Below are positions 6,455-53,987 of a DNA stretch of 64,000 nucleotides, in pieces. The notes beneath the pieces were generated by a model. That model did not search any database. It was not told the DNA's origin and worked only from the letters and a program-made list of their open reading frames with translations. The DNA is taken from the NCBI GenBank assembly GCA_958295685.2, contig OY282365.1:395395-459394 (forward strand), read 5' to 3'. A program made the position numbers and the translations under genes. This stretch comes from an uncultured Dehalococcoidia bacterium (GTDB lineage Bacteria; Chloroflexota; Dehalococcoidia; Lucifugimonadales; CATQGZ01). The stretch's first letter is position 1. Every line of letters starts with the position of its first letter.

Positions 6455-8074
6455 ATGGCATTCGACACGCTGATTTTGAACGGTACGGTGGTAGATGGGA
6501 CCGGCAAGCCGTCTTACCTGGCAGACGTGGGCATCGCCAACGACAGGATAGCCGCCGTCGGCGCACTGTCCGCGTCCGAGGCGGCCAGCCGGATCGATGC
6601 GGCAGGCTGCGTCGTGACGCCGGGATTCATAGACATGCACGCACACTCGGACGTGACCATGCTGGACGACCCGAGAGGGGAGAGCAAGGCTCACCAAGGG
6701 GTTACGACCGAGGTCACCGGGAACTGCGGCAGCACTCCATATCCGGCAGGCGTCCTGGGCAGCGGCGAGGCGCTGAGAAGGAGGCAGCCGACCCACCCGA
6801 TACCCCACTCTCCGACCATGTGGGCGTGGACCGACCTCGACAGCTGGGCGTCGCATACGGAGGAGGCGGGCATCGGCCTGAACATCGTCCCGCAGGTGGG
6901 TCACGCCGCTCTCAAGAACGCCGCGGGAGCCTCTATAGACCGGCCTGCCGGCCCCGACGAGCTGGCTCTGATGAAGAAGCTGGCCGCTGAAGCGGTGGAG
7001 CAGGGCGCGGCCGCGCTCAGCAATGCCCTAACAGGCCCCCACTTCGAGGGTGCGCCGACCGACGAGATAGTCGAACTCCTTGAGGCTGTCAGGCCCTACG
7101 AGAACGCCTTCTACTCGACGCACCCCAGGCTGGCCGGAGGATGGCACTTCAAGGCAGCGGAAGAGGCCGTCGAGATAGGCAGGCGCACCGGGATCGTGGT
7201 CGAGTACTCGCACATAGCCATCATAGACTCGCGGCACCATGGGAAGGCGGACGAGATGGCCGCGATATTCGAGAAGGGCAGGGAGGAGGGAGTGGACGTC
7301 GCCTTCGACCTCTATCCTTATCTGGCGGGCGCAGCGGGTTTCAAGTCCCTGACCCCGCCTTGGATGGAGGGACAGGGCGTTGAGGCGGCGCTGGAGATGC
7401 TGGCCGACCCCGCCACACGGCGGCGCGCCAGGGAGCAGATGGAGGGCGGCTGGTGGGGCGACATGCCCTGGCACTTCGACAAGATAGTGATAGTGAAGGT
7501 GGGACCCAACGGCGACCGCGGCCACCTTGGCCGCTCGCTGGCGGAGATCGCGGACTCCAGGGACGCCCATCCCCTGGACACCCTACTCGACATGCTGATA
7601 GAGGACCACAGTGTCGAGTCGGTCATGCACAACAGGACGGAGGAAGACATGCGCCGCTTCCTGGTCCATCCGCTGTCCATCATAGGATCGGACGGCACGG
7701 CGGTATCGCCGCACGGGATATGGAGCGTGACCCAGCCTCATCCGCGCATCTACGGGACTCACCCTAGGGTGCTGGGTAGGTACGTCCGTGAGGAGGGCGT
7801 CCTGTCGCTTGAGGACGCCGTCCACAAGATGAGCGGGTTTCCAGCCGAGAGGATCGGCCTCAGAGACAGGGGTCGTATAGAGGATGGGCTTGCGGCGGAC
7901 CTGGTGGTGTTCGATCCTGAGACGGTGTCGGACACCGCGACCTACCAGGAGCCGCACCGCTACCCTGACGGGATATTCCACGTGTTCCTCAACGGCGAGG
8001 CCATCGTCAGGGACGGAAAGCACACGGGTGCCCTCCCCGGTCGTGTGCTGAGGCGCGGACGCCATGGATATTGA
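6455..8074 (+). CDS. N-acyl-D-amino-acid deacylase (D-aminoacylase, amidohydrolase family)
   Basis: ATG 6455 (MAFDTLILNGTVVDGTG...). VTPGFIDMHAHSD metal motif and C-terminal ADLVVFDPETV. Confidence 0.85.
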   Translation: MAFDTLILNGTVVDGTGKPSYLADVGIANDRIAAVGALSASEAASRIDAAGCVVTPGFIDMHAHSDVTMLDDPRGESKAHQGVTTEVTGNCGSTPYPAGVLGSGEALRRRQPTHPIPHSPTMWAWTDLDSWASHTEEAGIGLNIVPQVGHAALKNAAGASIDRPAGPDELALMKKLAAEAVEQGAAALSNALTGPHFEGAPTDEIVELLEAVRPYENAFYSTHPRLAGGWHFKAAEEAVEIGRRTGIVVEYSHIAIIDSRHHGKADEMAAIFEKGREEGVDVAFDLYPYLAGAAGFKSLTPPWMEGQGVEAALEMLADPATRRRAREQMEGGWWGDMPWHFDKIVIVKVGPNGDRGHLGRSLAEIADSRDAHPLDTLLDMLIEDHSVESVMHNRTEEDMRRFLVHPLSIIGSDGTAVSPHGIWSVTQPHPRIYGTHPRVLGRYVREEGVLSLEDAVHKMSGFPAERIGLRDRGRIEDGLAADLVVFDPETVSDTATYQEPHRYPDGIFHVFLNGEAIVRDGKHTGALPGRVLRRGRHGY

Positions 8075-44325: not shown

Positions 44326-45170
44326 GCGCGGCCCCCGCGGCCGCCTGAGAGAACCTCGTTCAGGCTGCCGCTCCGGAAGCCTCCCATGTCCAGCGTCACG
44401 TAGACATAGCCGATCGATCGGAAGTAGCCCAGCACCGCTTCCCTGGTCTCCTCCCGCACCAGCCGAGACAGGTCGCCCGGCTCCACCTCGATCCTGGCTA
44501 TAGTGTCGTGATGCCTCACCCTCAGCTGCCGGAAACCCAGGCCGCGGAGAAACTCCTCCGCCTTCGCCACCGCGCTCAGCGCCTCCTCGGTGACCTCTGA
44601 GCCATAGGGTATCCGTGAAGACAGGCACGCCTGCGCGGGCTTGTCCCACGTCGGCAGGCCCATCTCTCTCGACAGGGCGCGCACGTCCCGCTTGGTCAGA
44701 CCCGCCTCGACCAGCGGGCTGCGCACCCCGTGCTTCTCCGCCGCCTTCAGACCCGGCCTGAAGTCGCCCAGATCGTCGGCGTTGGTCCCGTTCGCCACCC
44801 ACTCATAGCCCCGTTCCGAGGCCAGCCGGCCCAGGCGCGTGTACAGTTCATCCTTGCAGAAGTAGCAGCGGCCGGCGCCGTTAGACCTGTAGTCCGCCCG
44901 CTCGACCTCGGCGGTCTCGATGACGAGGTGATTCAGGCCCAGCGTCTCGGCCAGCCGAACCGCATCCCGCAACTCCGACGGAGCGAGGCTCGGCGAGTTG
45001 GCAGTGACCGCCAGAGACCTATCACCCAGCGCTCCGTTGGCCGCCGCGGCCAAGAGAGCGCTGTCCACGCCCCCTGAGTACGCCACGACCACACTGCCCA
45101 TCTCGGACAGCGCCGCCCTCAGCGCCCTCAGCTTCCCATCCAGACCTGGTTCCCCCTCGGCCGTCCTCAT
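44322..45170 (-). CDS. PP-loop ATP pyrophosphatase, LarE-like
   Basis: SGGVDS motif VVAYSGGVDSALLA. Start uncertain (ATG 45170 or 45230). Confidence 0.7.
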   Translation of the reverse strand: MRTAEGEPGLDGKLRALRAALSEMGSVVVAYSGGVDSALLAAAANGALGDRSLAVTANSPSLAPSELRDAVRLAETLGLNHLVIETAEVERADYRSNGAGRCYFCKDELYTRLGRLASERGYEWVANGTNADDLGDFRPGLKAAEKHGVRSPLVEAGLTKRDVRALSREMGLPTWDKPAQACLSSRIPYGSEVTEEALSAVAKAEEFLRGLGFRQLRVRHHDTIARIEVEPGDLSRLVREETREAVLGYFRSIGYVYVTLDMGGFRSGSLNEVLSGGRGGRA

Positions 45171-45296
45171 CCTGCCGTCAATACTATCACACGGCAGCGC
45201 CTCGCCCGTGAGCGACCCCTCCACGTCCATCGGGTCCACCTGGCCTCGCCCTGAAACCCATTCCAACGGCACAATTGCCCACACCCTGACCGGAGG

Positions 45297-45385
45297 GGCG
45301 CGCCTTTGTGCCCCTAGGAAGCAGCGAGGAACTGGCCGAGGCGTCCGGCCTCTCGGTGGCGCGCCTTTGTGCCCCTAGGAAGCAG
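45297..45385 (+). repeat. 28-bp direct repeat x2 separated by 33 bp
   Basis: GGCGCGCCTTTGTGCCCCTAGGAAGCAG at 45297-45324 and 45358-45385; function unknown. Confidence 0.6.
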
Positions 45386-45539
45386 TCCCCTAAGCCGCTC
45401 GTCCGATACAGATGGGGGATTGGTGAGTACGCCTAGCTTTGACCTGGTATCTTCCAGGCGGCCTCAATATCGTGGCTGGCAGGCCCGGTTTGTGGAGCAA
45501 CTTATTGTGCCCTTGCAACACAAGACTGGGCACATTTCA

Positions 45540-45772
45540 GACGCGGTTTCTCCCCGGTCTCCCATCGGTTATAATATCAAAGTCAGAGAGGGACTCACCG
45601 GGTTAGTTGCGGTTTCTCCCCGATCTCCCATCGGTTATAATTCCTTCAAGCACATCAGAACGCGCCAGAGGTTGCGGTTTCTCCCCGATCTCCCATCGGT
45701 TATAATTCATCGTCGCGCCCATCCAGGCCATCATGAGTTGCGGTTTCTCCCCGATCTCCCGTCGGTTATGAC
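45540..45772 (+). CRISPR. Type II-C-like CRISPR array, 4 repeats / 3 spacers
   Basis: 36-bp repeat GTTGCGGTTTCTCCCCGATCTCCCATCGGTTATAAT at 45606 and 45671. Variants at 45540 (5' end degenerate) and 45737 (3' end degenerate). Spacers of 30, 29 and 30 bp. The sense strand is inferred from tracrRNA complementarity. Confidence 0.9.
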
Positions 45773-48700
45773 GCCAAAGGCCCCGGGTCCAGCACCCGCC
45801 CGATCTCGTTCACCTTCACCTTGCGGAAGCCCTGACTCTGGAGCTGCCGGTCGCTGTACTGGCTCGCCTTCATCTCCTTCTTCCTCACGCGGGCATCGAC
45901 GTTGGCCTCGGTGTGGTCGTCCAGCGCCACGAAGGTACCGTTCTTGGCGTTCGTAATCTTCCGGACCCGCACTATGCGGCGGTCCGGCCCTTCACCAAAC
46001 GCGCCCATGTCGTCGATCTGAAGCCTCATGATTCGCTTCGCCACGGGGTCGCGCCTTCCCGGCTTGTCCTTGGGGCGGAACTGCTCGATGTCGAAACCGG
46101 GCTGATTGGCGTCGAAGGCGGGAACGACGACCATCCTCCAACTCCCGTCGCGCATCCGCCACACGTCGGCGAACTCGTTTCCCCCGGGAAGGTAGCCCTT
46201 GTATGGCCTTCCGTCGCGGTCCCTGACTGGTATGACACTCTGGTTGTCGACGACGCGCACGCGCCGCACAGGGCGGGGGCGCCCGCCCATCGTCACGCCC
46301 CTGTTTGCCGCCCGGTCGGCGAATCTCGCGGTGACCTTGGAGACCGAGCCGCCCTCGGATTCCGCCTCGTCCCACAACTCCAGCAGCGCCGCTCTCAGCG
46401 CCTGGTCTCGCACCGATTTTATGTCGGCACGCTTCTTGAAGTCGGACAGATTCTTGCGAGTCACGACCCTGGACGGGCCGTCTTCCGAATGCTCGATCAG
46501 CCCGTAGGCCGTCTCGTTGTGCAGCTGCCCTGTAGTCTTGCCCTTCTCGCCGCGCGTTCCATGGTCTGGCTTATGGGAGACCACCAGTCTGTCGAGGAAG
46601 GGCTTCAACTGGCTGCGGTTAAAACCGTCCCACGGACGTGCCTCCCCAGCGACCGCGGCCAGTCTCTCCTCTGCTTCGGCGCGGTCGGACCCGGCGGCGT
46701 GCGCGAATCGCTGGAGCAGCCCCTGGGTGGTGTTCGCCACGACGAATGCGTCGATGGCGTGGTGGCGGTGGTCGTCGCGCTGCTTGCCCACGATTTTGCC
46801 GGCCTCGTTCACAGGCAGCATCTCCTCCAGCCTCCATCCCCGCCTGAGCAGCGCCGTCATCTGGCCCGGTATGACACGCACCCGCTTCTTGCCCTCGCTC
46901 CTCTCGTCGTACAGGTGGGCCAGATATGCGCGGGCCGTGCGGGACAGGTAGCGCGTCTCGTTGAGCTGCCGATCCAGGAAGTGGCGCTCGCCCTTGAAGC
47001 GGTCCATGGCGTCCTCATCGAATCTCCAGCGCTTGTTGCCAGGCAGCCTGAAGGCGCGGGACAGGATGGCGTCGTAGTCGTAACCGTCCTGTCCATGTCC
47101 GAACGCCTCGTGTGGAGACCGGTTGCCCTTGCCACGGTTGGCGCTGGATACGCACACGACCTTGTTCGCCATCGAGTTATCCAAAGTACGGGAGAACGGG
47201 AGGATGTGGTCGATCTCGGTTGCGTCCGACACCGCCATCTCGAATGAGAGAACTCTGCCGGTGTAGGGACAGTGGCGCCCCTGCTCCTCCCATAGGCGGA
47301 GCTTCCCGAGCGCGTCGGCTGTGATGGGTCTTTCCGCCGACTCCAGCATCTCCTTGAAGCGCTCGTTGCGCTTCCCACCCTCCCGCTGCTGTCGTTCGTA
47401 ATTCTGCTTCTGCTCCCTGTTCCTCTTCAGGTCACGCCCCAGCTCCACCACGACATCTTCCGGCCTGCCGTACGCATCGATGAGCCGGTTGACGACGCGC
47501 CGCAGCTGGTTCAGGCCAATATGGACGGTGGGGTTGGGGAACCGGCCGTAGCGGGCGGCCTCGCCGTCCTTCTCGGAGTCTTTCGTCGGGTCGGTCCCGA
47601 CCGTGGCCTGGGTGAGCACCTTGCCGTAGTAGGGCAGCCGCTCGTGGGCCTCCGCGCTGCGGAAGTCGGAGTGATGGGAGTATCCCGCGGCTTTGACGGC
47701 GTCCGAATAGACACGGCCCTTCTCCAGGTGCGGAAGCAGCTTGCGGATGGCCTTTTCGCTCAGGTTCCCGTAGCCGTCCGGGAGCGCGGCGTGGGCGACG
47801 ACTTCGGCCTGCGCGGCGTCCAGTCCCCAATCATCCAGGGCCTTCTGCCGGACGACCTCCGGGTCCTCCGTATCGAGCATGAACTGCACGATTCCGTTCC
47901 GCTCGTCGAGGGGAAGATCGAGCCAGCGGTCGCCGAACAGCGTCAGTTCCTTCTCGCCCTTCCTCCTCTTTCCCTTTATGAGACGGGCGGCGGTCTTGTC
48001 TCCATCGATCTTCTTGCGCCCGCCCGCGGCCAGGTTGAACGTGGCCCCCGAGGGGATTCCGAGATCCCGCGTGGGCTTGACGGCTCTGTTGTCCTTGCCC
48101 TCGCGTAGCTTGATGTCCTTACCCGCCCGCAGCCGTTTCAGCGCGCGCTCCCGCTCGCGTTCGTCCAGCGCGCGCTCAGGCCCGAAGCTGACCCGGAGTC
48201 TCAGGTTGTTGACCTCCTGGAGCATGCGGAACTCCTGCGCCACCGGCAACGCCTTTGCTGCCCGGCACTCTCCCTCCTCCAGCTGGCACCATCCCGGATC
48301 GACGTGCTTCAGGGGCCGCTGGAAGAAGATGATGTGGTCTCGCAGGGTGTCCCACCGCTCCTCGATCAGGCTGTGGTGAGGCTCCTGTGCCTCCCGGATC
48401 TTGTCGAACTCGTCCTCGTACATTGCCCTGTCAGGGTAGAGATCCAGACCCTGCCGGGCGCGGACGGATTCGCCCTTCTCACGCCGCGGCGCCAGGAACT
48501 CACCCAGCGTCCGCGCCCCGCTCTCTTCGATACGGTTGTGCAGCGCGCTTATCATGGCGAGCGTTTTCTTGGCCTCGCTCTCGTCGTCGGTGACTGTCTT
48601 GCGGTTCGACTTGAAGCCGCGCCGCTGGTTCAGATGGAACAGCGCCCGGCCCAGTTCGTAGGGTTCGAGCGGGTGATCGAGCGCACGCGCCCGGAGCGCA

Positions 48701-49017
48701 TACGGGTCGAGGCGTTCGAGGGCCTTGCGCTCTCTTTCATCAGGCGGCATGAGGCCGAGCTCGACGAGGGCCTGCATCAGATCGCCGCGACGCTTCAGAT
48801 AGCGGTCACGGCGGCGGCGAGCTCCACGAGCGACGCGACGGTCGGCGGCGTTGGAAGTCCCCGATTGCCGGTTGCGTCCGTCAGGGAAGATGCGGACGCC
48901 CATGTCCAGCGTCCCGCAGGGCTCACCGTCCTCGTTCAGGAGGACCGCGGCCCAGCCGACGGAGTTGGTCCCGAGGTCGAGTCCAAGCCGGTACTTCCTG
49001 CCGTCTTCAGTCGTCAT
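45766..49017 (-). CDS. cas9: CRISPR-associated endonuclease Cas9 (type II-C size class)
   Basis: 1083 aa. RuvC-I YRLGLDLGTNSVGWA; Arg-rich bridge helix RRVARGARRRRDRYLKRR; RuvC-II VVVELGRDL; HNH EIDHILPFSRTLDNSMANKVVC...NRGKGNRSP; RuvC-III HHAIDAFV. All catalytic residues are present. Confidence 0.95.
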   Translation of the reverse strand: MTTEDGRKYRLGLDLGTNSVGWAAVLLNEDGEPCGTLDMGVRIFPDGRNRQSGTSNAADRRVARGARRRRDRYLKRRGDLMQALVELGLMPPDERERKALERLDPYALRARALDHPLEPYELGRALFHLNQRRGFKSNRKTVTDDESEAKKTLAMISALHNRIEESGARTLGEFLAPRREKGESVRARQGLDLYPDRAMYEDEFDKIREAQEPHHSLIEERWDTLRDHIIFFQRPLKHVDPGWCQLEEGECRAAKALPVAQEFRMLQEVNNLRLRVSFGPERALDERERERALKRLRAGKDIKLREGKDNRAVKPTRDLGIPSGATFNLAAGGRKKIDGDKTAARLIKGKRRKGEKELTLFGDRWLDLPLDERNGIVQFMLDTEDPEVVRQKALDDWGLDAAQAEVVAHAALPDGYGNLSEKAIRKLLPHLEKGRVYSDAVKAAGYSHHSDFRSAEAHERLPYYGKVLTQATVGTDPTKDSEKDGEAARYGRFPNPTVHIGLNQLRRVVNRLIDAYGRPEDVVVELGRDLKRNREQKQNYERQQREGGKRNERFKEMLESAERPITADALGKLRLWEEQGRHCPYTGRVLSFEMAVSDATEIDHILPFSRTLDNSMANKVVCVSSANRGKGNRSPHEAFGHGQDGYDYDAILSRAFRLPGNKRWRFDEDAMDRFKGERHFLDRQLNETRYLSRTARAYLAHLYDERSEGKKRVRVIPGQMTALLRRGWRLEEMLPVNEAGKIVGKQRDDHRHHAIDAFVVANTTQGLLQRFAHAAGSDRAEAEERLAAVAGEARPWDGFNRSQLKPFLDRLVVSHKPDHGTRGEKGKTTGQLHNETAYGLIEHSEDGPSRVVTRKNLSDFKKRADIKSVRDQALRAALLELWDEAESEGGSVSKVTARFADRAANRGVTMGGRPRPVRRVRVVDNQSVIPVRDRDGRPYKGYLPGGNEFADVWRMRDGSWRMVVVPAFDANQPGFDIEQFRPKDKPGRRDPVAKRIMRLQIDDMGAFGEGPDRRIVRVRKITNAKNGTFVALDDHTEANVDARVRKKEMKASQYSDRQLQSQGFRKVKVNEIGRVLDPGPLAS

Positions 49018-49100
49018 GGAATCCCCTCTCGCCCTCGCCGTAGCTGTTCAGAGTTGATGAGGTCTCCCTATCCGCAAGCGCAGGGCGGTCGCGGCCTGTG

Positions 49101-49312
49101 GTTTTGCCGAAAACTGTCCCAAACTGTTCCATTTTGTCCCATCTCGTAGCTGAGGGGTTCGATTTCGTGGAACAAATGTGGGGCACTTGTGGAACGGATG
49201 TGGAACGGAACCGGAGCAGTTCCGGTACAATTGTGGAACAGGGTCTTCAGGGCTGCTGCTGGGTGTGCTGCTTCCATGTGAATAATATAGTACAGGGGTT
49301 CGCCGCCGTCAA
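49101..49312 (-). ncRNA. Candidate promoter-linked structured leader cassette, divergent copy E, reading into cas9
   Basis: Minus-sense TTGACG (49312-49307), 17-nt spacer, TATATT (49289-49284). 5' block CATGGAAGCAGC, CCTGAAGACCCTGT, 11-nt words CCGTTCCACAT, loop GAAATCGAACCCCTCAGCTACGAGAT, inverted word TGGAACA (plus-strand 49125-49131), then TTTTCGGCAAAAC. Ends about 85 nt before the cas9 ATG. Confidence 0.45.
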
Positions 49313-49428
49313 GGGGACTTCCCCTTCGGACCTCACAGAGTCTGAACAGTTACGCCCTCGCTGATTGGATTTGCGCAGAGATTCGGGACGGTGGTACAAT
49401 TCCTTCCGCCAAGGCTCCGTCAACGTAG

Positions 49429-49515
49429 ATTATAATCGATTGGGAGATCGGGGAGTCTCCGTTAACAAGCCTTGCACAAAATCGGAGGACGGGCTACGTG
49501 CCCGTCCTCTCCCCC
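49429..49515 (+). ncRNA. tracrRNA candidate
   Basis: ATTATAATCGATTGGGAGATCGGGGAGTCTCCGTTAAC can pair along almost the whole repeat. It is followed by AAGCCTTGCACAAAATC and an 11-bp hairpin GGAGGACGGGC-TACGT-GCCCGTCCTCT. It carries its own TATAAT at 49431-49436. Confidence 0.7.
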
Positions 49516-49626
49516 ATTCTTGAGGCCGCGCCCGTTCGTCTCCCGAGGCTCGGGAATCCTGATTCAGGCAATCTGCCGCCTACCCAGGCCCCCTCAGGTC
49601 CTCCGTGGTTCTGGTACACTCTGCGC

Positions 49627-49989
49627 ATGGAGAGGGCGCGGTTCGAGAGACTGGTCGCGGAGGCGCTGGAGAAGATACCGGACGAGATCGGCGCCGGTAT
49701 GGACAACCTGGACGTGGTGGTCGACGACTGGCCCACGCAGTCGCAGATGCTCGGATCGGGGATTGAGGAGGGAGAGTATCTCCTGGGGCTCTACGAAGGG
49801 CTGCCGCTGACCGAGCGGTACGACTACAGCATGGTGCTGCCGGACAAGATCACCCTGTTCCAGGGAGCTATCGAGGCCGTCTGCTCCACCGATGAAGAGG
49901 TGGTCCAGGAGGTGCGGGACACGGTGATACACGAGGTGGCGCACCACTTCGGCATCGACGACGAGCGGCTCCGGGAGATGGGTCTGTAG
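49627..49989 (+). CDS. Small zinc metallopeptidase-family protein (HExxH)
   Basis: ATG 49627 (MERARFERLV...). C-terminal TVIHEVAHHFGIDDERL. Confidence 0.75.
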   Translation: MERARFERLVAEALEKIPDEIGAGMDNLDVVVDDWPTQSQMLGSGIEEGEYLLGLYEGLPLTERYDYSMVLPDKITLFQGAIEAVCSTDEEVVQEVRDTVIHEVAHHFGIDDERLREMGL

Positions 49990-50010
49990 GGCAGCTACGG
50001 GCGCGCCGCC

Positions 50011-51651
50011 CTAGTCGTCGGGACCGAAGAGCTCATCCGTCTCGCGCTCGACCTGGGCCCTCAACTCCGCGGCGTCTCTGAAGCCCAGCTCCCTGTACGA
50101 CTCCGCGGAGCCGTATTCCCGCGTCTCGATGACGACGGGCATCGGCACGGCGTGCCCGAAGACGAGCGCCTGGCGCTTGGACTCCAGCCTCGCGAGCACG
50201 GAGCGCAGCCGCCGGCTGCCGGACACGCCGGTCATCACCGCGTCGAGGTCCTTCTCGTTGTCGAGCAGGCACGTGAGCTTGGTGCCCAGCTGACTCATCA
50301 CCTCGTCGTCGATCCCGCTGGGCCGCTGGTCCACGACGAGCAGTGTGACGTTGTACTTGCGCATCTCGCGGGCGATGGCGCCGAAGGTGGTCTGCGAGGC
50401 AACGCCCGGATTGAGGAACTTGTGGGCCTCTTCGATGGTGATCACCAGCGGCCTGGGCTTCCTGGCCTCGTCTCCCATCGCCTCCTCGGACTCTCTCTGG
50501 TAGCGCTCGTAGATGCGGCGGGTGAGGAGATTGGCGACCAGCACGTAGGCGGCCGTGTCGCTCCCGTAGCGCCCGAACTCGAGGACGACGTGCATCCCCC
50601 TGTCGAGGTACTGGAGGATGCGTCCAACGGAGTCGTGGCCCGAGCCCTTGTCCATGAACTTGAGTCGCTTGAGCCTGGACAGGCGGTTCTTCAGCGTGCT
50701 GAGCGCCCTCTCGTTGACGCTGAGGGCGCCGGCGAGGTCCCTGAAGGCGTCCCCCGTCGGGTGCTCCAGAAAGTGGGCGAGCCACGACTTCCCGAAGTGG
50801 CGCTGCAACGAATACGCCGCGTCGGCGGCCACGTCGGAGAGGCTGAGGCTCTCCCTGAGGAGCTGCACGTCCTCCGGCTCCACCTCGTCGAGACCTACAC
50901 GGACTACATAGTCGGGGGTGAGCCCGCGACGGCGCGAACTCTCCTCGTCGAGCGAGAAGACGGCGACCCTGGACGGGAAGAGCTGCTTCAGTCCCTTCAC
51001 CTCGCGCGAATCCTCGCTGTAGCCCTTCCAGCCGTACTCGCTCTGCATGTCGAAGACGAGGTTGCTGGCTGCCCCGCTCTGAAGGATGCCGGCGAGCAGG
51101 AGCCTGGTGAGAAAGGTCTTGCCGGTGCCGCTCTTGCCGAAGACGCCGTTGCTGCGCATCACGAACTCCGGCACGTCCAGGCAGAGCCGTGTCTCCATGT
51201 CGAGAGGGCTGCCTATCCAGAAGTGGCGCTCGTCCTCCTCGCCGAAGACGAGCCGCACGTCGTCCTCGGAGGCGAGGTGGACAGGGGAGAAGTGGGGCGG
51301 GATGGTCTTCGCGGGCTGAGGCCCCTCTACCAACGCCAGCGGGTCGTTGCTCAGCGCCAGCACGGGCTCCACGTCCAGGGCGCCGAAGGCCGCGGTTCCG
51401 AGGAGCGCCTCCGCGATGAACGGGTCTGATACGTCAGGCGGCGCGGCGCTCATGTAGGCGTCCGAGGTCTCCAGGGAGACGTTGCTGACGACGGCGAAGA
51501 ACCGCAACAGCTTCCCGCGCGCCGTAACGTACCTGCCCACCCTGACGTCCTCGACGTTGACGCCGCGGTCGAGACGCACCCTGAGCCCGTCGGTCAGGGA
51601 ACCCTTGACCACCACGCCGAGACGTCCTTCCTGGCCTGGAGAGTCGTTCAT
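50011..51651 (-). CDS. HerA-like (DUF87, FtsK-HerA superfamily) ATPase
   Basis: ATG 51651 overlaps the upstream stop (ATGA). N-terminal HAS-barrel-like LGVVVKGSLTDGLRVRL...RFFAVVSNV. Walker A GKSGTGKT, Walker B LVITIEEAHKF, and VVDQRPS. Confidence 0.8.
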   Translation of the reverse strand: MNDSPGQEGRLGVVVKGSLTDGLRVRLDRGVNVEDVRVGRYVTARGKLLRFFAVVSNVSLETSDAYMSAAPPDVSDPFIAEALLGTAAFGALDVEPVLALSNDPLALVEGPQPAKTIPPHFSPVHLASEDDVRLVFGEEDERHFWIGSPLDMETRLCLDVPEFVMRSNGVFGKSGTGKTFLTRLLLAGILQSGAASNLVFDMQSEYGWKGYSEDSREVKGLKQLFPSRVAVFSLDEESSRRRGLTPDYVVRVGLDEVEPEDVQLLRESLSLSDVAADAAYSLQRHFGKSWLAHFLEHPTGDAFRDLAGALSVNERALSTLKNRLSRLKRLKFMDKGSGHDSVGRILQYLDRGMHVVLEFGRYGSDTAAYVLVANLLTRRIYERYQRESEEAMGDEARKPRPLVITIEEAHKFLNPGVASQTTFGAIAREMRKYNVTLLVVDQRPSGIDDEVMSQLGTKLTCLLDNEKDLDAVMTGVSGSRRLRSVLARLESKRQALVFGHAVPMPVVIETREYGSAESYRELGFRDAAELRAQVERETDELFGPDD

Positions 51652-52274
51652 GGAGACAGCCTCCTCAGGATACCGCTCAGGCGCAGCGTGTCCCGGCCGA
51701 GGAGGACGGCCAGCTCGCGGCCCGCTTCGACCAGGAACCCGTGAGGATCCGGATGGCACAGGCTGGCCTGCCTGACGAAGGAGGCGGCCACGTCGTCGGG
51801 AGAGGGAACGGGCGCGGAGAGGAGAATCGTGAGGAAGTCGAGAGACGACGTGAAGGCCTGTGACTCGTCGGCGCCGCAGGAGTAGACGAATGCGTGTATC
51901 CTGGGCGGCCTCGGAGCGAGGAAGCGCATGGTCTCGCCGTCGAGCGCGTGGCCGACTACCAGGGCGCGGAACTCCGTTCGCAGGAGACGGCTCAGCTGGG
52001 GATTGTTGCGGTAGATGTCCTCCTCCGTATCCTCGTCGCGGCCGCGCGCAATCGGGCGCCTGCCCGGGTCTATGCTGGTGGTCGCAACCTCGCCGACGAC
52101 GCCGTAGACGGGGCCCTCCGCGCCGCATCGGACGAGGGCTCCGAGCGGAGGCGCCCCATAGAGCTCGTAGCAGTGGACCATGAAGTGGTCGGTCGATGCC
52201 TCGACCACTTCACCGAGGCGGTCGGGCCGTTGTTTCGGGTTGGCCGTCTCTTCCATAGCGTGCCTCACAGCCAT
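51648..52274 (-). CDS. Hypothetical protein with HAS-barrel-like N-terminus (start 52274 or 52256)
   Basis: About 208 aa. LGEVVEASTDHFMVHCYELYGAPPLGALVRCGAEGPVYGVVGEVAT parallels the barrel of the downstream ATPase. Sandwiched between NurA-like and HerA-like genes. Confidence 0.5.
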   Translation of the reverse strand: MAVRHAMEETANPKQRPDRLGEVVEASTDHFMVHCYELYGAPPLGALVRCGAEGPVYGVVGEVATTSIDPGRRPIARGRDEDTEEDIYRNNPQLSRLLRTEFRALVVGHALDGETMRFLAPRPPRIHAFVYSCGADESQAFTSSLDFLTILLSAPVPSPDDVAASFVRQASLCHPDPHGFLVEAGRELAVLLGRDTLRLSGILRRLSP

Positions 52275-53479
52275 CTCAGCCGCTTGGAGCGGCTCTTCTC
52301 CGAAGTGCGTACCGGCAGCGCCTGGTCGTGGAGGGCCGTATCCACCTGCTCGACGAAGAGGCGCCGGTCGCCGGCGCTGATGACGGCCTGCTCGTGCGCC
52401 TCCATCAGCGCGACCGGGTACCCCTGCCCAAGGCGGCACTGTTCGAACGCCAGGGAGTGGGTCAGGTCGAGCAGCGCTGGGTCGGCCGCCACCCACGAGG
52501 GCGTCTCCACCCGGGCGACCTCCTCGCCGGCGTGGAGGTAGAAGAAGCACACCTCCTGGCCGGAGTAGTGGTTGGCCACGAGGGGCGAGGAGCTGCGGAA
52601 CAGACCAGACCGCTGTCCCGGCCGCAGAATGTCCCAGAACAGATCCCTGTCGACCACGCCATCGGCCACGTCGTCGCACGGCCGGGCGCCCGGGGCCGTC
52701 TCTCGGCAGTGCCGTTCGCACTCCGCGGCATGGTACGGACAGGCGGCCAGCCGCAGGGCGTTGACCACTTCCACCCCTGCGGGCATGCTCACGTAGCTGG
52801 CGACCGCCAACGGCCGATCGGCGGCCAGACCCCTGAGGCGGTCGAGCGCCTCCATGAGGCCGTTGTCGACCAGGTCGCGCCTGACGTAGTCCTCATAACC
52901 GTGGCCGGAGATGCCGATCATTATGAGGGAGCCGTCCATGATTGCCAGGGTCGGCAGGTCGTCAGGAAGCATGGCGGCGGTCTCGGCCAACGCGGTGGCC
53001 TCCTCGGCCATGCGCTTGGCTGCCAGGACGTTGCCTTCGATCCACACCTGCCGGAAGTGGGAGTCGGGGTCTCGGATGACGAGCTCGTCGGCTTCGGCGT
53101 AGAGACGGGCGCGGCTGCTCAGTTCGGCGTTGGGCCGTGAGCCGTAGGTCAGAGACGCTACGCCGACGTTTATCACGTAGCACCGAGCCGGCATGTTCCG
53201 GTCGGCGCCGATGTCCGACCCGTCGGTCGCGATGACGCGGTAGTCGTCCGGCGGAGGCTGGGCCGGGTACGCGGCCCCGGGGCTGTCCGACGCCGTCGGC
53301 AGCCTCCACGCCGCTGCGGGTCCACTGCGGTTGCGCTTGTCCTCGTAAGACACGGGGTCGAACCCGCGGGCGGTTTCCAGTGCGCGCTCGAGCCGCTGCC
53401 GCTTCTCGTAGGCCCGGCCCTTGAGGCCGGCGGCCATACGGTCGATCTGCATCGCTGTGTTGCCCAGGTCGAGCGGCAT
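52265..53479 (-). CDS. NurA-like nuclease
   Basis: ATG 53479, 1 nt after the upstream TAG. NurA signature Asp motifs VIATDGSDIG and LAIMDGSLIM. Confidence 0.7.
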   Translation of the reverse strand: MPLDLGNTAMQIDRMAAGLKGRAYEKRQRLERALETARGFDPVSYEDKRNRSGPAAAWRLPTASDSPGAAYPAQPPPDDYRVIATDGSDIGADRNMPARCYVINVGVASLTYGSRPNAELSSRARLYAEADELVIRDPDSHFRQVWIEGNVLAAKRMAEEATALAETAAMLPDDLPTLAIMDGSLIMIGISGHGYEDYVRRDLVDNGLMEALDRLRGLAADRPLAVASYVSMPAGVEVVNALRLAACPYHAAECERHCRETAPGARPCDDVADGVVDRDLFWDILRPGQRSGLFRSSSPLVANHYSGQEVCFFYLHAGEEVARVETPSWVAADPALLDLTHSLAFEQCRLGQGYPVALMEAHEQAVISAGDRRLFVEQVDTALHDQALPVRTSEKSRSKRLRWL

Positions 53480-53480
53480 T

Positions 53481-53987
53481 CTACCCGAGCTCCACGCGGT
53501 CGCTCTCGAAGACGACCCACCGCCCCGCGAATCCGACGCGCACCCTTCCGAGGCGTCTGATCTCAATACGGAGCCGGTCGAGCCGCCTCGTGACCTCCGA
53601 ATCGTCGGTCGTGGTCTGCGCTCCGGCCACCGACTCTCCCCAGAGACCTCTCTGGGGGAGCCTCTTGATGAGTTCGATCAGCCTGTCCAAAAAGAGTGTG
53701 AAGGCCATCTTGCAGAGGGATTCCAGAGGGTCGGCCTCGAGCGGATCGAAGAACGCAAGCCTGAGAACGAGCCTGTCCTCTTCCGGCATGGCCCACACTC
53801 GCAGCGCCGGGTATGGGGGTTCGGCGAACAGGTCGTGGGACGGGTCGCTCGCGCGGGCAGCGGCCCGGAGGGCGGCCTGAAGTGTGCGCAGCAGGGACGA
53901 GACGTTGGACACGGACAGATAGCCCGTGTCCAGCACGACTTCCAGGAGATGCTGCCCGTCCTCGACAGGCCTGCCGTCGGTCTCCAT
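53481..53987 (-). CDS. Hypothetical protein, first gene of the NurA/HerA operon
   Basis: 168 aa with a GGGAG RBS and no recognisable motif. Starts 24 nt downstream of the selB stop. Confidence 0.5.
   Translation of the reverse strand: METDGRPVEDGQHLLEVVLDTGYLSVSNVSSLLRTLQAALRAAARASDPSHDLFAEPPYPALRVWAMPEEDRLVLRLAFFDPLEADPLESLCKMAFTLFLDRLIELIKRLPQRGLWGESVAGAQTTTDDSEVTRRLDRLRIEIRRLGRVRVGFAGRWVVFESDRVELG

Follow-up and report, generated by a model that had tools for sequence, protein, structure and literature searches.

How does a type II CRISPR-Cas locus come to hold a cas9 gene, a trans-activating CRISPR RNA (tracrRNA) gene and a very short array, with no genes for the acquisition of spacers beside them? 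The question is raised by a locus in a 64-kb stretch of DNA (hereafter the window; C1:395395-459394, on contig OY282365.1) from the genome of an uncultured Dehalococcoidia bacterium, which comprises 2.67 Mb in 6 contigs and is 94.5% complete. Comparisons with related loci suggest that it is very probably a degenerate type II-C system, which lost its adaptation module through one deletion and of which the remainder is still competent for interference. The initial annotation, made from the letters of the window, had described a stand-alone type II-C-like cas9 with a tracrRNA and a mini-array, which could presumably interfere but not adapt on its own. The first part of this description is supported, the lineage showing every type II-C feature and this copy departing only in the cas1-cas2 missing from its operon, and the second is supported as an inference, the Cas9, tracrRNA and repeats being intact and cas1-cas2 and the leader deleted.

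The organization from which the locus departs can be recognized in the relatives of its Cas9, which come mainly from metagenome-assembled genomes (MAGs) of Dehalococcoidia and other Chloroflexota. Our collection comprised 27 related loci from species genomes and 80 from metagenomes (80 of at least 583 matches), and 91 of these had enough sequence downstream of cas9 to be assessed. A full cas1 and cas2 lie directly 3' of cas9 in 85 of the 91, and this arrangement of exactly cas9-cas1-cas2 makes the lineage type II-C and the copy in the window a deletion derivative. The genes occur in the order cas9, cas1 (with its start overlapping the cas9 stop), cas2, a conserved leader and the array, with the tracrRNA gene upstream in divergent orientation. 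In the close relatives the TGA stop of cas9 overlaps the ATG or GTG start of cas1 (...GTC(A/G)TGATCGGCCG...), and cas1 and cas2 encode 303 and 108 amino acids, respectively. Between them, cas1, cas2 and the leader place the first repeat approximately 1.31-1.35 kb past cas9, two loci reaching about 1.5 kb, and the leader itself is conserved and about 80-90 nucleotides (nt) long (..CCGAACCTGTCTCCAAGCTGG..). The repeats are near-identical to those of the window (one mismatch in locus L006) and in the same orientation, and the arrays mostly contain 8-73 of them, with a degenerate repeat always at the cas-distal end. Three Chloroflexota relatives from Dehalococcoidia MAGs (L014, L005 and L006) illustrate the contrast: they share with the window a Cas9 of 71-74% identity with the same C-terminus, near-identical repeats and the tracrRNA architecture, but still have cas1 and cas2, a leader and arrays of 23-48 repeats. 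The inserted promoter element described below is missing from them, and only 70-200 nt separate their tracrRNA genes from cas9. A separate feature of the leader, seen in the 75-90 nt that separate cas2 from the first repeat in loci L005-L031, L036-L042 and L090, is an inverted repeat (e.g. gccaaatctcttt..aaatcagagacttggc). It stops some 5-10 nt short of the first repeat and may be a leader-anchoring element for the integrase.

Set against this layout, alignment of cas9 3' ends reveals a readable junction in the window (Table 1). The region that holds the cas9 stop and cas1 start in the relatives is here fused 3-5 nt inside a repeat (ATTATAACCGATGGG), with a 2-nt AT microhomology, such that cas9 and the last repeat overlap at the stop codon, a TAA that the repeat now supplies. 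The Cas9 C-terminus accordingly reads ...GRVLDPGPLAS (stop) in the window and ...GRVLDPGPPKS (stop) in the relatives, the two being aligned up to DPGP, and the change caused by the fusion is limited to the last two or three residues. A cas9 stop fused inside a repeat, as opposed to one followed by the genes and leader of the relatives, means that cas1, cas2 and the leader were taken in one deletion, which measured at least 1.34 kb. Judged from this comparison, the state without cas1 and cas2 is a derived one, reached by a traceable deletion.

Table 1. Positions of the features discussed in the text. Coordinates are those of the window, except for the type I-G system (contig C1) and the related loci (own numbering).
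Feature	Position	Strand	Description
Deletion junction	45763..45775		cas9 sense strand GGCGTCAT/AACCGACGGGAG (longer: GGCGTCAT/AACCGACGGGAGATCGGGG); from alignment of cas9 3' ends
cas9	45766..49017	minus	1083 amino acids, type II-C, intact reading frame
CRISPR array	45540..45772	plus	4 repeats, 3 spacers; CRISPR RNAs read in plus-strand sense, antisense to cas9
Repeats (36 nt each)	45540-45575, 45606-45641, 45671-45706, 45737-45772	plus	
Spacers (30, 29, 30 nt)	45576-45605, 45642-45670, 45707-45736	plus	
tracrRNA gene	49392..49515 (about 49405-49515 without the -10 box)	plus	From anti-repeat pairing and conservation; predicted transcript ends
-10-like box	49392-49400	plus	TGGTACAAT; about 35 nt before the anti-repeat, common to relatives
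Anti-repeat	49429-49466	plus	ATTATAATCGATTGGGAGATCGGGGAGTCTCCGTTAAC; same strand as the CRISPR RNAs
Terminator hairpin	about 49485-49509	plus	11-bp, G+C-rich; 3' of the anti-repeat
Extra segment (about 330 nt)	49018..49353	minus	Between tracrRNA gene and cas9 start; lacking in relatives
Type I-G CRISPR-Cas system	C1:1575000-1596670		Loci L003, L004; Csb1, Csb2, Cas3g, Cas3-extension, Cas2, Cas4g/Cas1g
L019			cas1 codon 26 fused to nt 1 of a repeat; 4 repeats left
L043			cas1 codon 98, followed by 15 nt (not leader) and at least 55 array repeats
L094			cas9 stop abuts the repeat start; about 25 repeats left
L026	13236-14462		cas1 truncated at about codon 85, phage-type integrase gene adjoining
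L074	3200-4791		cas1 ends at codon 77, then a gene for an IS256/Mutator-family transposase
L025			No cas1 anywhere in the genome; cas9 with one stop
L107			cas9, anti-repeat, array; cas1 absent from the available 1.2 kb of downstream sequence

The lost genes were not recovered elsewhere. The earlier statement that the window holds no cas1, cas2, csn2 or cas4 was borne out, and no type II version of any of the four was detected in the rest of the 2.67-Mb genome. With the type II Cas1 and Cas2 of the relatives as queries, tblastn returned no match in the window and, genome-wide, only a weak match to a type I-G cas1; the Pfam Cas1 and Cas2 models gave one genome match each, at C1:1588003-1590004, 1.15 Mb away. 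A genome-wide check for a cas1-cas2 pair associated with the same repeat yielded only this type I-G pair, whose repeat and leader differ and whose spacers are of another length. Neither the locus nor the genome retains any piece of cas1 or cas2 or any leader-like sequence, and the canonical cas1-cas2 site after cas9 is demonstrably empty. Hence, of the operon that typifies type II-C loci, namely cas9-cas1-cas2 without csn2 or cas4, cas1 and cas2 are gone and no fourth gene is present.

What the deletion left behind appears to be well preserved. The Cas9 had been described as an intact protein with RuvC and HNH motifs, and TIGR01865, Pfam and a family alignment all confirm this. Its match to TIGR01865 reaches 613 bits (cut-off 100) and spans positions 1-1021 of the 1070 in the model, and it contains the Pfam domains RuvC_III, HNH_4 and Cas9_a (the alpha-helical lobe). 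The catalytic residues of the RuvC I (D14), RuvC II (E525), HNH (H604 and N627) and RuvC III (H753 and D756) motifs, which together constitute the type II signature, align to those of solved Cas9 structures, and all six are invariant in a 15-sequence family alignment; the protein is therefore neither truncated nor inactivated on alignment. Its best matches among solved structures are compact Cas9s of 1055-1095 amino acids (E of 1e-55 to 1e-69), including the type II-C enzymes GeoCas9 and Nme1Cas9, and SpCas9 is a far weaker match (E of about 1e-15). The grouping with type II-C is based on these matches and on the layout of its neighbors in the Cas9 tree, which all lie in cas9-cas1-cas2 loci. 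At columns invariant in the 14 other members of the family alignment it deviates in 4 of 283, the members' own range being 2-41, and its terminal branch on the Cas9 tree is 0.23 long as against a median of 0.32. By these measures Cas9 is without signs of decay.

The tracrRNA, which the initial annotation had called convincing, is likewise supported by its predicted pairing with the repeat and by its conservation. The anti-repeat is complementary to nearly all 36 nt of the repeat, the pairing being interrupted by two bulges of one base each and by an internal loop (3x3), and the cofolded pair has a computed energy of -81.5 kcal/mol. It is followed by the conserved motif CCGTTAACAAGCC..CACAAAAT (also written AACAAGCC..CACAAAAT), and the same element, comprising the anti-repeat, CCGTTAACAAGCC, CACAAAATGAG and GGGCGGGCTACGGCCCGCCC, occurs divergently upstream of cas9 in 15 of the 17 relatives searched. 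No Rfam family matched in 44800-50000, even at E <= 1, so that the call rests on the anti-repeat pairing and conservation. The distance between anti-repeat and cas9 is about 410 nt here as opposed to 70-200 nt in the relatives, the difference being the extra segment listed in Table 1. This segment contains repeats of the word TTCCACA (49169-49239), inverted ends (CTGTTCAGA...TCTGAACAG) and a predicted promoter, TTGACG-17-TATATT at 49312-49284, aimed at cas9. It is probably an inserted promoter-carrying repeat element, and its promoter is likely to be the one from which cas9 is presently expressed.

The array has the 36-nt repeats and approximately 30-nt spacers typical of type II-C, 29-30 nt being the modal spacer length in the type II-C relatives, and the four repeats that had been counted in it were all recovered. 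The repeat reads GTTGCGGTTTCTCCCCGATCTCCCATCGGTTATAAT on the plus strand and is absent from the remainder of the genome in a whole-genome search. Its two inner copies are identical and the two outer copies have three mismatches each. The distal copy at 45540 is degenerate at its outer end, as are the terminal repeats of the relatives, and the array probably ended there originally. TATAAT closes repeats 1-3, a position at which the repeats of the relatives have TAnnnT (TATAAT, TACAAT, TAAACT or TATACT). In repeat 1 the half that pairs with the tracrRNA is degenerate and the promoter box is retained, and in repeat 4 the box was lost at the junction and the pairing half is retained, so that each spacer still has a predicted promoter upstream and an intact handle downstream. 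No spacer matches its own genome with fewer than 6 mismatches, and a self-targeting or regulatory role was rejected on this ground. About 155 bp past the distal end of the array, at 45297-45385, there is also a perfect 28-bp direct repeat (GGCGCGCCTTTGTGCCCCTAGGAAGCAG) in two copies 33 bp apart, which is unique in the genome and whose 33-bp gap holds a CCGAG...CTCGG inverted repeat.

Given the above observations, the history and present working of the locus can be reconstructed as follows. The ancestor had a divergent tracrRNA gene, cas9, cas1, cas2, leader and array, as in nearly all relatives. Sequence comparison shows that one deletion of the size given above ran from the overlap of the cas9 stop and cas1 start to 3-5 nt inside a repeat, and it removed, in addition to cas1, cas2 and the leader, the newest repeat-spacer units, however many there were. 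In the remaining locus cas9 would be transcribed from the promoter in the inserted repeat element, the tracrRNA would be transcribed divergently, and each of the three spacers would be transcribed from the TATAAT box in the repeat upstream of it, by analogy with the type II-C systems of Neisseria and Campylobacter. The resulting CRISPR RNA (crRNA) would consist of a guide of about 23 nt and the 5' part of the next repeat; it would pair with the tracrRNA and load Cas9, which would then cut matching DNA. With the integrase lost together with its leader site, no new spacers can be added. The module that is left most likely serves interference alone, with its three spacers frozen.

Several observations weigh against this reconstruction. 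The candidate promoters inside the repeats have a perfect -10 box, but neither a clear -35 box nor an extended -10. The 22 nt of each spacer that adjoin the downstream repeat have no exact match in a viral contig collection, and a search of 400 genomes of the order with spacer 1, in which up to 3 mismatches were allowed, gave nothing either. With 94.5% of the genome recovered, a type II cas1-cas2 could formally lie in the missing part. Moreover, the closest Cas9 is only 72-74% identical (72% for the best of 7179 homologues compared), so that the age of the deletion cannot be estimated and the intact Cas9 may reflect recent loss rather than selection. A rival view is that the locus is a relic without function that is in the course of being lost: with the adaptation module gone, nothing would maintain cas9, the tracrRNA or the three old spacers, which would look intact only because the deletion is recent. 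The tiny array and the want of any spacer target would fit such a relic, as would the absence of cas9 from both genomes of the same genus and the decay of related loci (18 stops in cas9, a split cas1 and 2 repeats in L018; a cas9 stop and no cas1 in L025). A relic would not, however, be expected to have a Cas9 of ordinary branch length that is off at so few of the family-invariant positions, an intact tracrRNA and inner repeats, terminal repeats that each keep exactly the half that is needed, and a strong predicted promoter aimed at cas9. On balance we consider it unlikely that the locus is such a relic.

Two further explanations were weighed. The array might still be updated in trans, either by the Cas4/Cas1-Cas2 of the type I-G system or by recombination with the arrays of other strains. 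An intact-looking Cas4g/Cas1g fusion and Cas2 are indeed encoded 1.15 Mb away, type VI systems are known to borrow type II-C adaptation machinery (PMC8092290), and spacer exchange by transformation has been proposed for cas9-only Campylobacter coli (PMC4607530). Against this, the type I-G repeat is unlike the type II-C repeat and its spacers are 35-39 nt long as opposed to 29-30 nt; the array has only 3 spacers, as against the mostly 8-73 repeats of intact relatives; and since the type II-C leader was deleted as well, help in trans becomes highly improbable. That the missing genes are an artefact of assembly, through collapse or misjoining at CRISPR repeats, would fit the fact that the genome, like those of its named relatives, is a MAG and that CRISPR arrays are prone to collapse in assembly. 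The contig, however, is 2.5 Mb long, and the junction is not of the repeat-to-repeat kind: it joins the unique 3' end of cas9 to a repeat with 2-nt microhomology and a clean in-frame stop, and analogous junctions are seen in the independent assemblies of L019, L043 and L094. An artefact is thus hardly credible. We therefore retain the reading of the locus as a type II-C system that lost adaptation through a genuine deletion and would still be able to interfere.

The same kind of loss is encountered repeatedly within the family. A full cas1-cas2 is missing from six of the 91 loci that could be assessed, and L107 represents a seventh case (Table 1). In a Cas9 tree with 64 rows, those without cas1-cas2 number seven, the window included, and require seven independent changes. 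In L019, L043 and L094, as in the window, the deletion is fused to the array; L026 and L074, with an integrase and a transposase gene at the break, respectively, are by their sequence cases in which cas1-cas2 was lost by routes other than array fusion. Three of these four deletions have their distal end at the repeat edge nearest the leader (3-5 nt inside it in the window, at nt 1 in L019 and at the repeat start in L094) and their proximal end at or just inside the cas1 start, a sample that is under-powered. L043, in which the deletion ends 15 nt before the repeat in sequence other than leader, weakens an exact repeat-border rule for the deletion ends. The leader-proximal repeat edge is the kind of site that is nicked by the Cas1-Cas2 integrase. 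One might imagine that the loss of adaptation is not random decay but a recurrent and mechanistically biased event, with cas1-cas2 excised by aberrant strand transfer of the integrase itself or through microhomology between ATGAT at the cas1 start and ATTAT at the repeat start, and with a stable, possibly selected Cas9 module of frozen memory left behind; we regard this as quite improbable. Two of the related loci show further peculiarities. In L107, a more distant relative, the anti-repeat (TTCTGCTAGGAT, which complements ATCCTAGCAGA at the start of the repeat) is flanked by cas9 and the array (7204-7340), a position of the tracrRNA unlike that in the Chloroflexota group. L018 (DAOUHG010000137.1, 7846-12559) is decaying but keeps cas2, with cas1 in two pieces, 18 stops in cas9 in the frame read and 2 repeats.

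Among characterized systems, the arrangement of array and predicted promoters finds its closest parallel in Neisseria and Campylobacter, whose type II-C arrays have a promoter inside each repeat. Type II-C systems with such repeat-internal promoters were reportedly described by Zhang et al. in 2013 for Neisseria meningitidis and by Dugar et al. in 2013 for Campylobacter jejuni. The locus resembles these in the size of its Cas9 (about 1080 amino acids), the 36-nt repeat, the approximately 30-nt spacers, the array antisense to cas9, the candidate -10 box at the 3' end of the repeat and the tracrRNA gene upstream of cas9; it differs in lacking cas1, cas2 and the leader, and its repeat has no extended -10 (TGn).

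The loss itself has a precedent in clade 3 of C. coli, for which type II-C loci consisting of "cas9 only + repeats" were described and inferred to be unable to acquire spacers (Pearson et al. 2015, PMC4607530); incomplete type II loci are also mentioned by Chylinski et al. 2013 (PMC3737331). In both cases a type II-C cas9 with its nuclease motifs and an array are found without cas1 or cas2 at the locus, acquisition is presumed to be absent, and sister lineages carry the full cas9-cas1-cas2. The window also conforms to the cas9-only form of type II-C in that cas9 and repeats are present, no cas1 or cas2 of the same type occurs in the genome and the relatives have the full operon. It differs from C. 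coli clade 3 in belonging to another phylum (Chloroflexota, Dehalococcoidia), with a Cas9 that is only distantly related; in having a readable junction at the cas9 stop and a demonstrated loss of the leader; and in that its host has a separate type I-G system, itself complete, other cas genes being absent from the C. coli genomes. The configuration is thus one that has already been described, of which the window is a further example.

The type I-G system of the host is identified by NCBIfam matches to cas4g_cas1g (737 bits), cas3_GSU0051 (740), Csb2 (315), Csb1 (72) and the Cas3-extension (303). Its Cas4g/Cas1g fusion has 594 amino acids, and its array consists of 88 copies of CTATCCGCGACCTAGCGGTCGCGGCCCCATTGAAGC, a repeat unrelated to that of the type II-C locus, with spacers of 35-39 nt. 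Just upstream of it lies a gene for a 1075-amino acid SNF2/DrmD-like helicase with a weak PLD-like match, and a small array-like pair with a repeat related to that of type I-G (..GCGGCCCCATTGAAGG) occurs at C3:15777-15868. As to the genes that flank the type II-C locus in the window, initially named as a LarE-like ATPase and a metallopeptidase, they were confirmed as a PP-loop ATPase (NAD_synthase-like) and a Zincin_1 metallopeptidase. Two genes past the tracrRNA gene, beyond the zincin-like metallopeptidase, a HerA (DUF87, HAS-barrel) and NurA gene pair is encoded on the minus strand (50011-53566), which may belong to a defence-rich neighborhood. The flanking genes are on separate contigs in both genomes of the same genus, neither of which has any cas9, and 14.5 kb apart in a genome of the same family, so that no empty site can be defined.

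On the whole, the locus leaves the current understanding of CRISPR biology unchanged. For annotation, it implies that loci of this kind should be labelled as degenerate type II-C rather than as a new subtype. Its Cas9, compact and intact, stems from an organism of high G+C content and has a crRNA:tracrRNA pair that is clearly defined, and it could be of interest to enzyme prospectors. The locus is of value in documenting, with a readable junction, a class 2 system that lost adaptation while keeping interference. Within a single Cas9 family, which extends over Chloroflexota, Pseudomonadota and uncultured lineages, adaptation was lost on at least seven independent occasions, and this recurrence bears on the question of how long interference-only modules persist.

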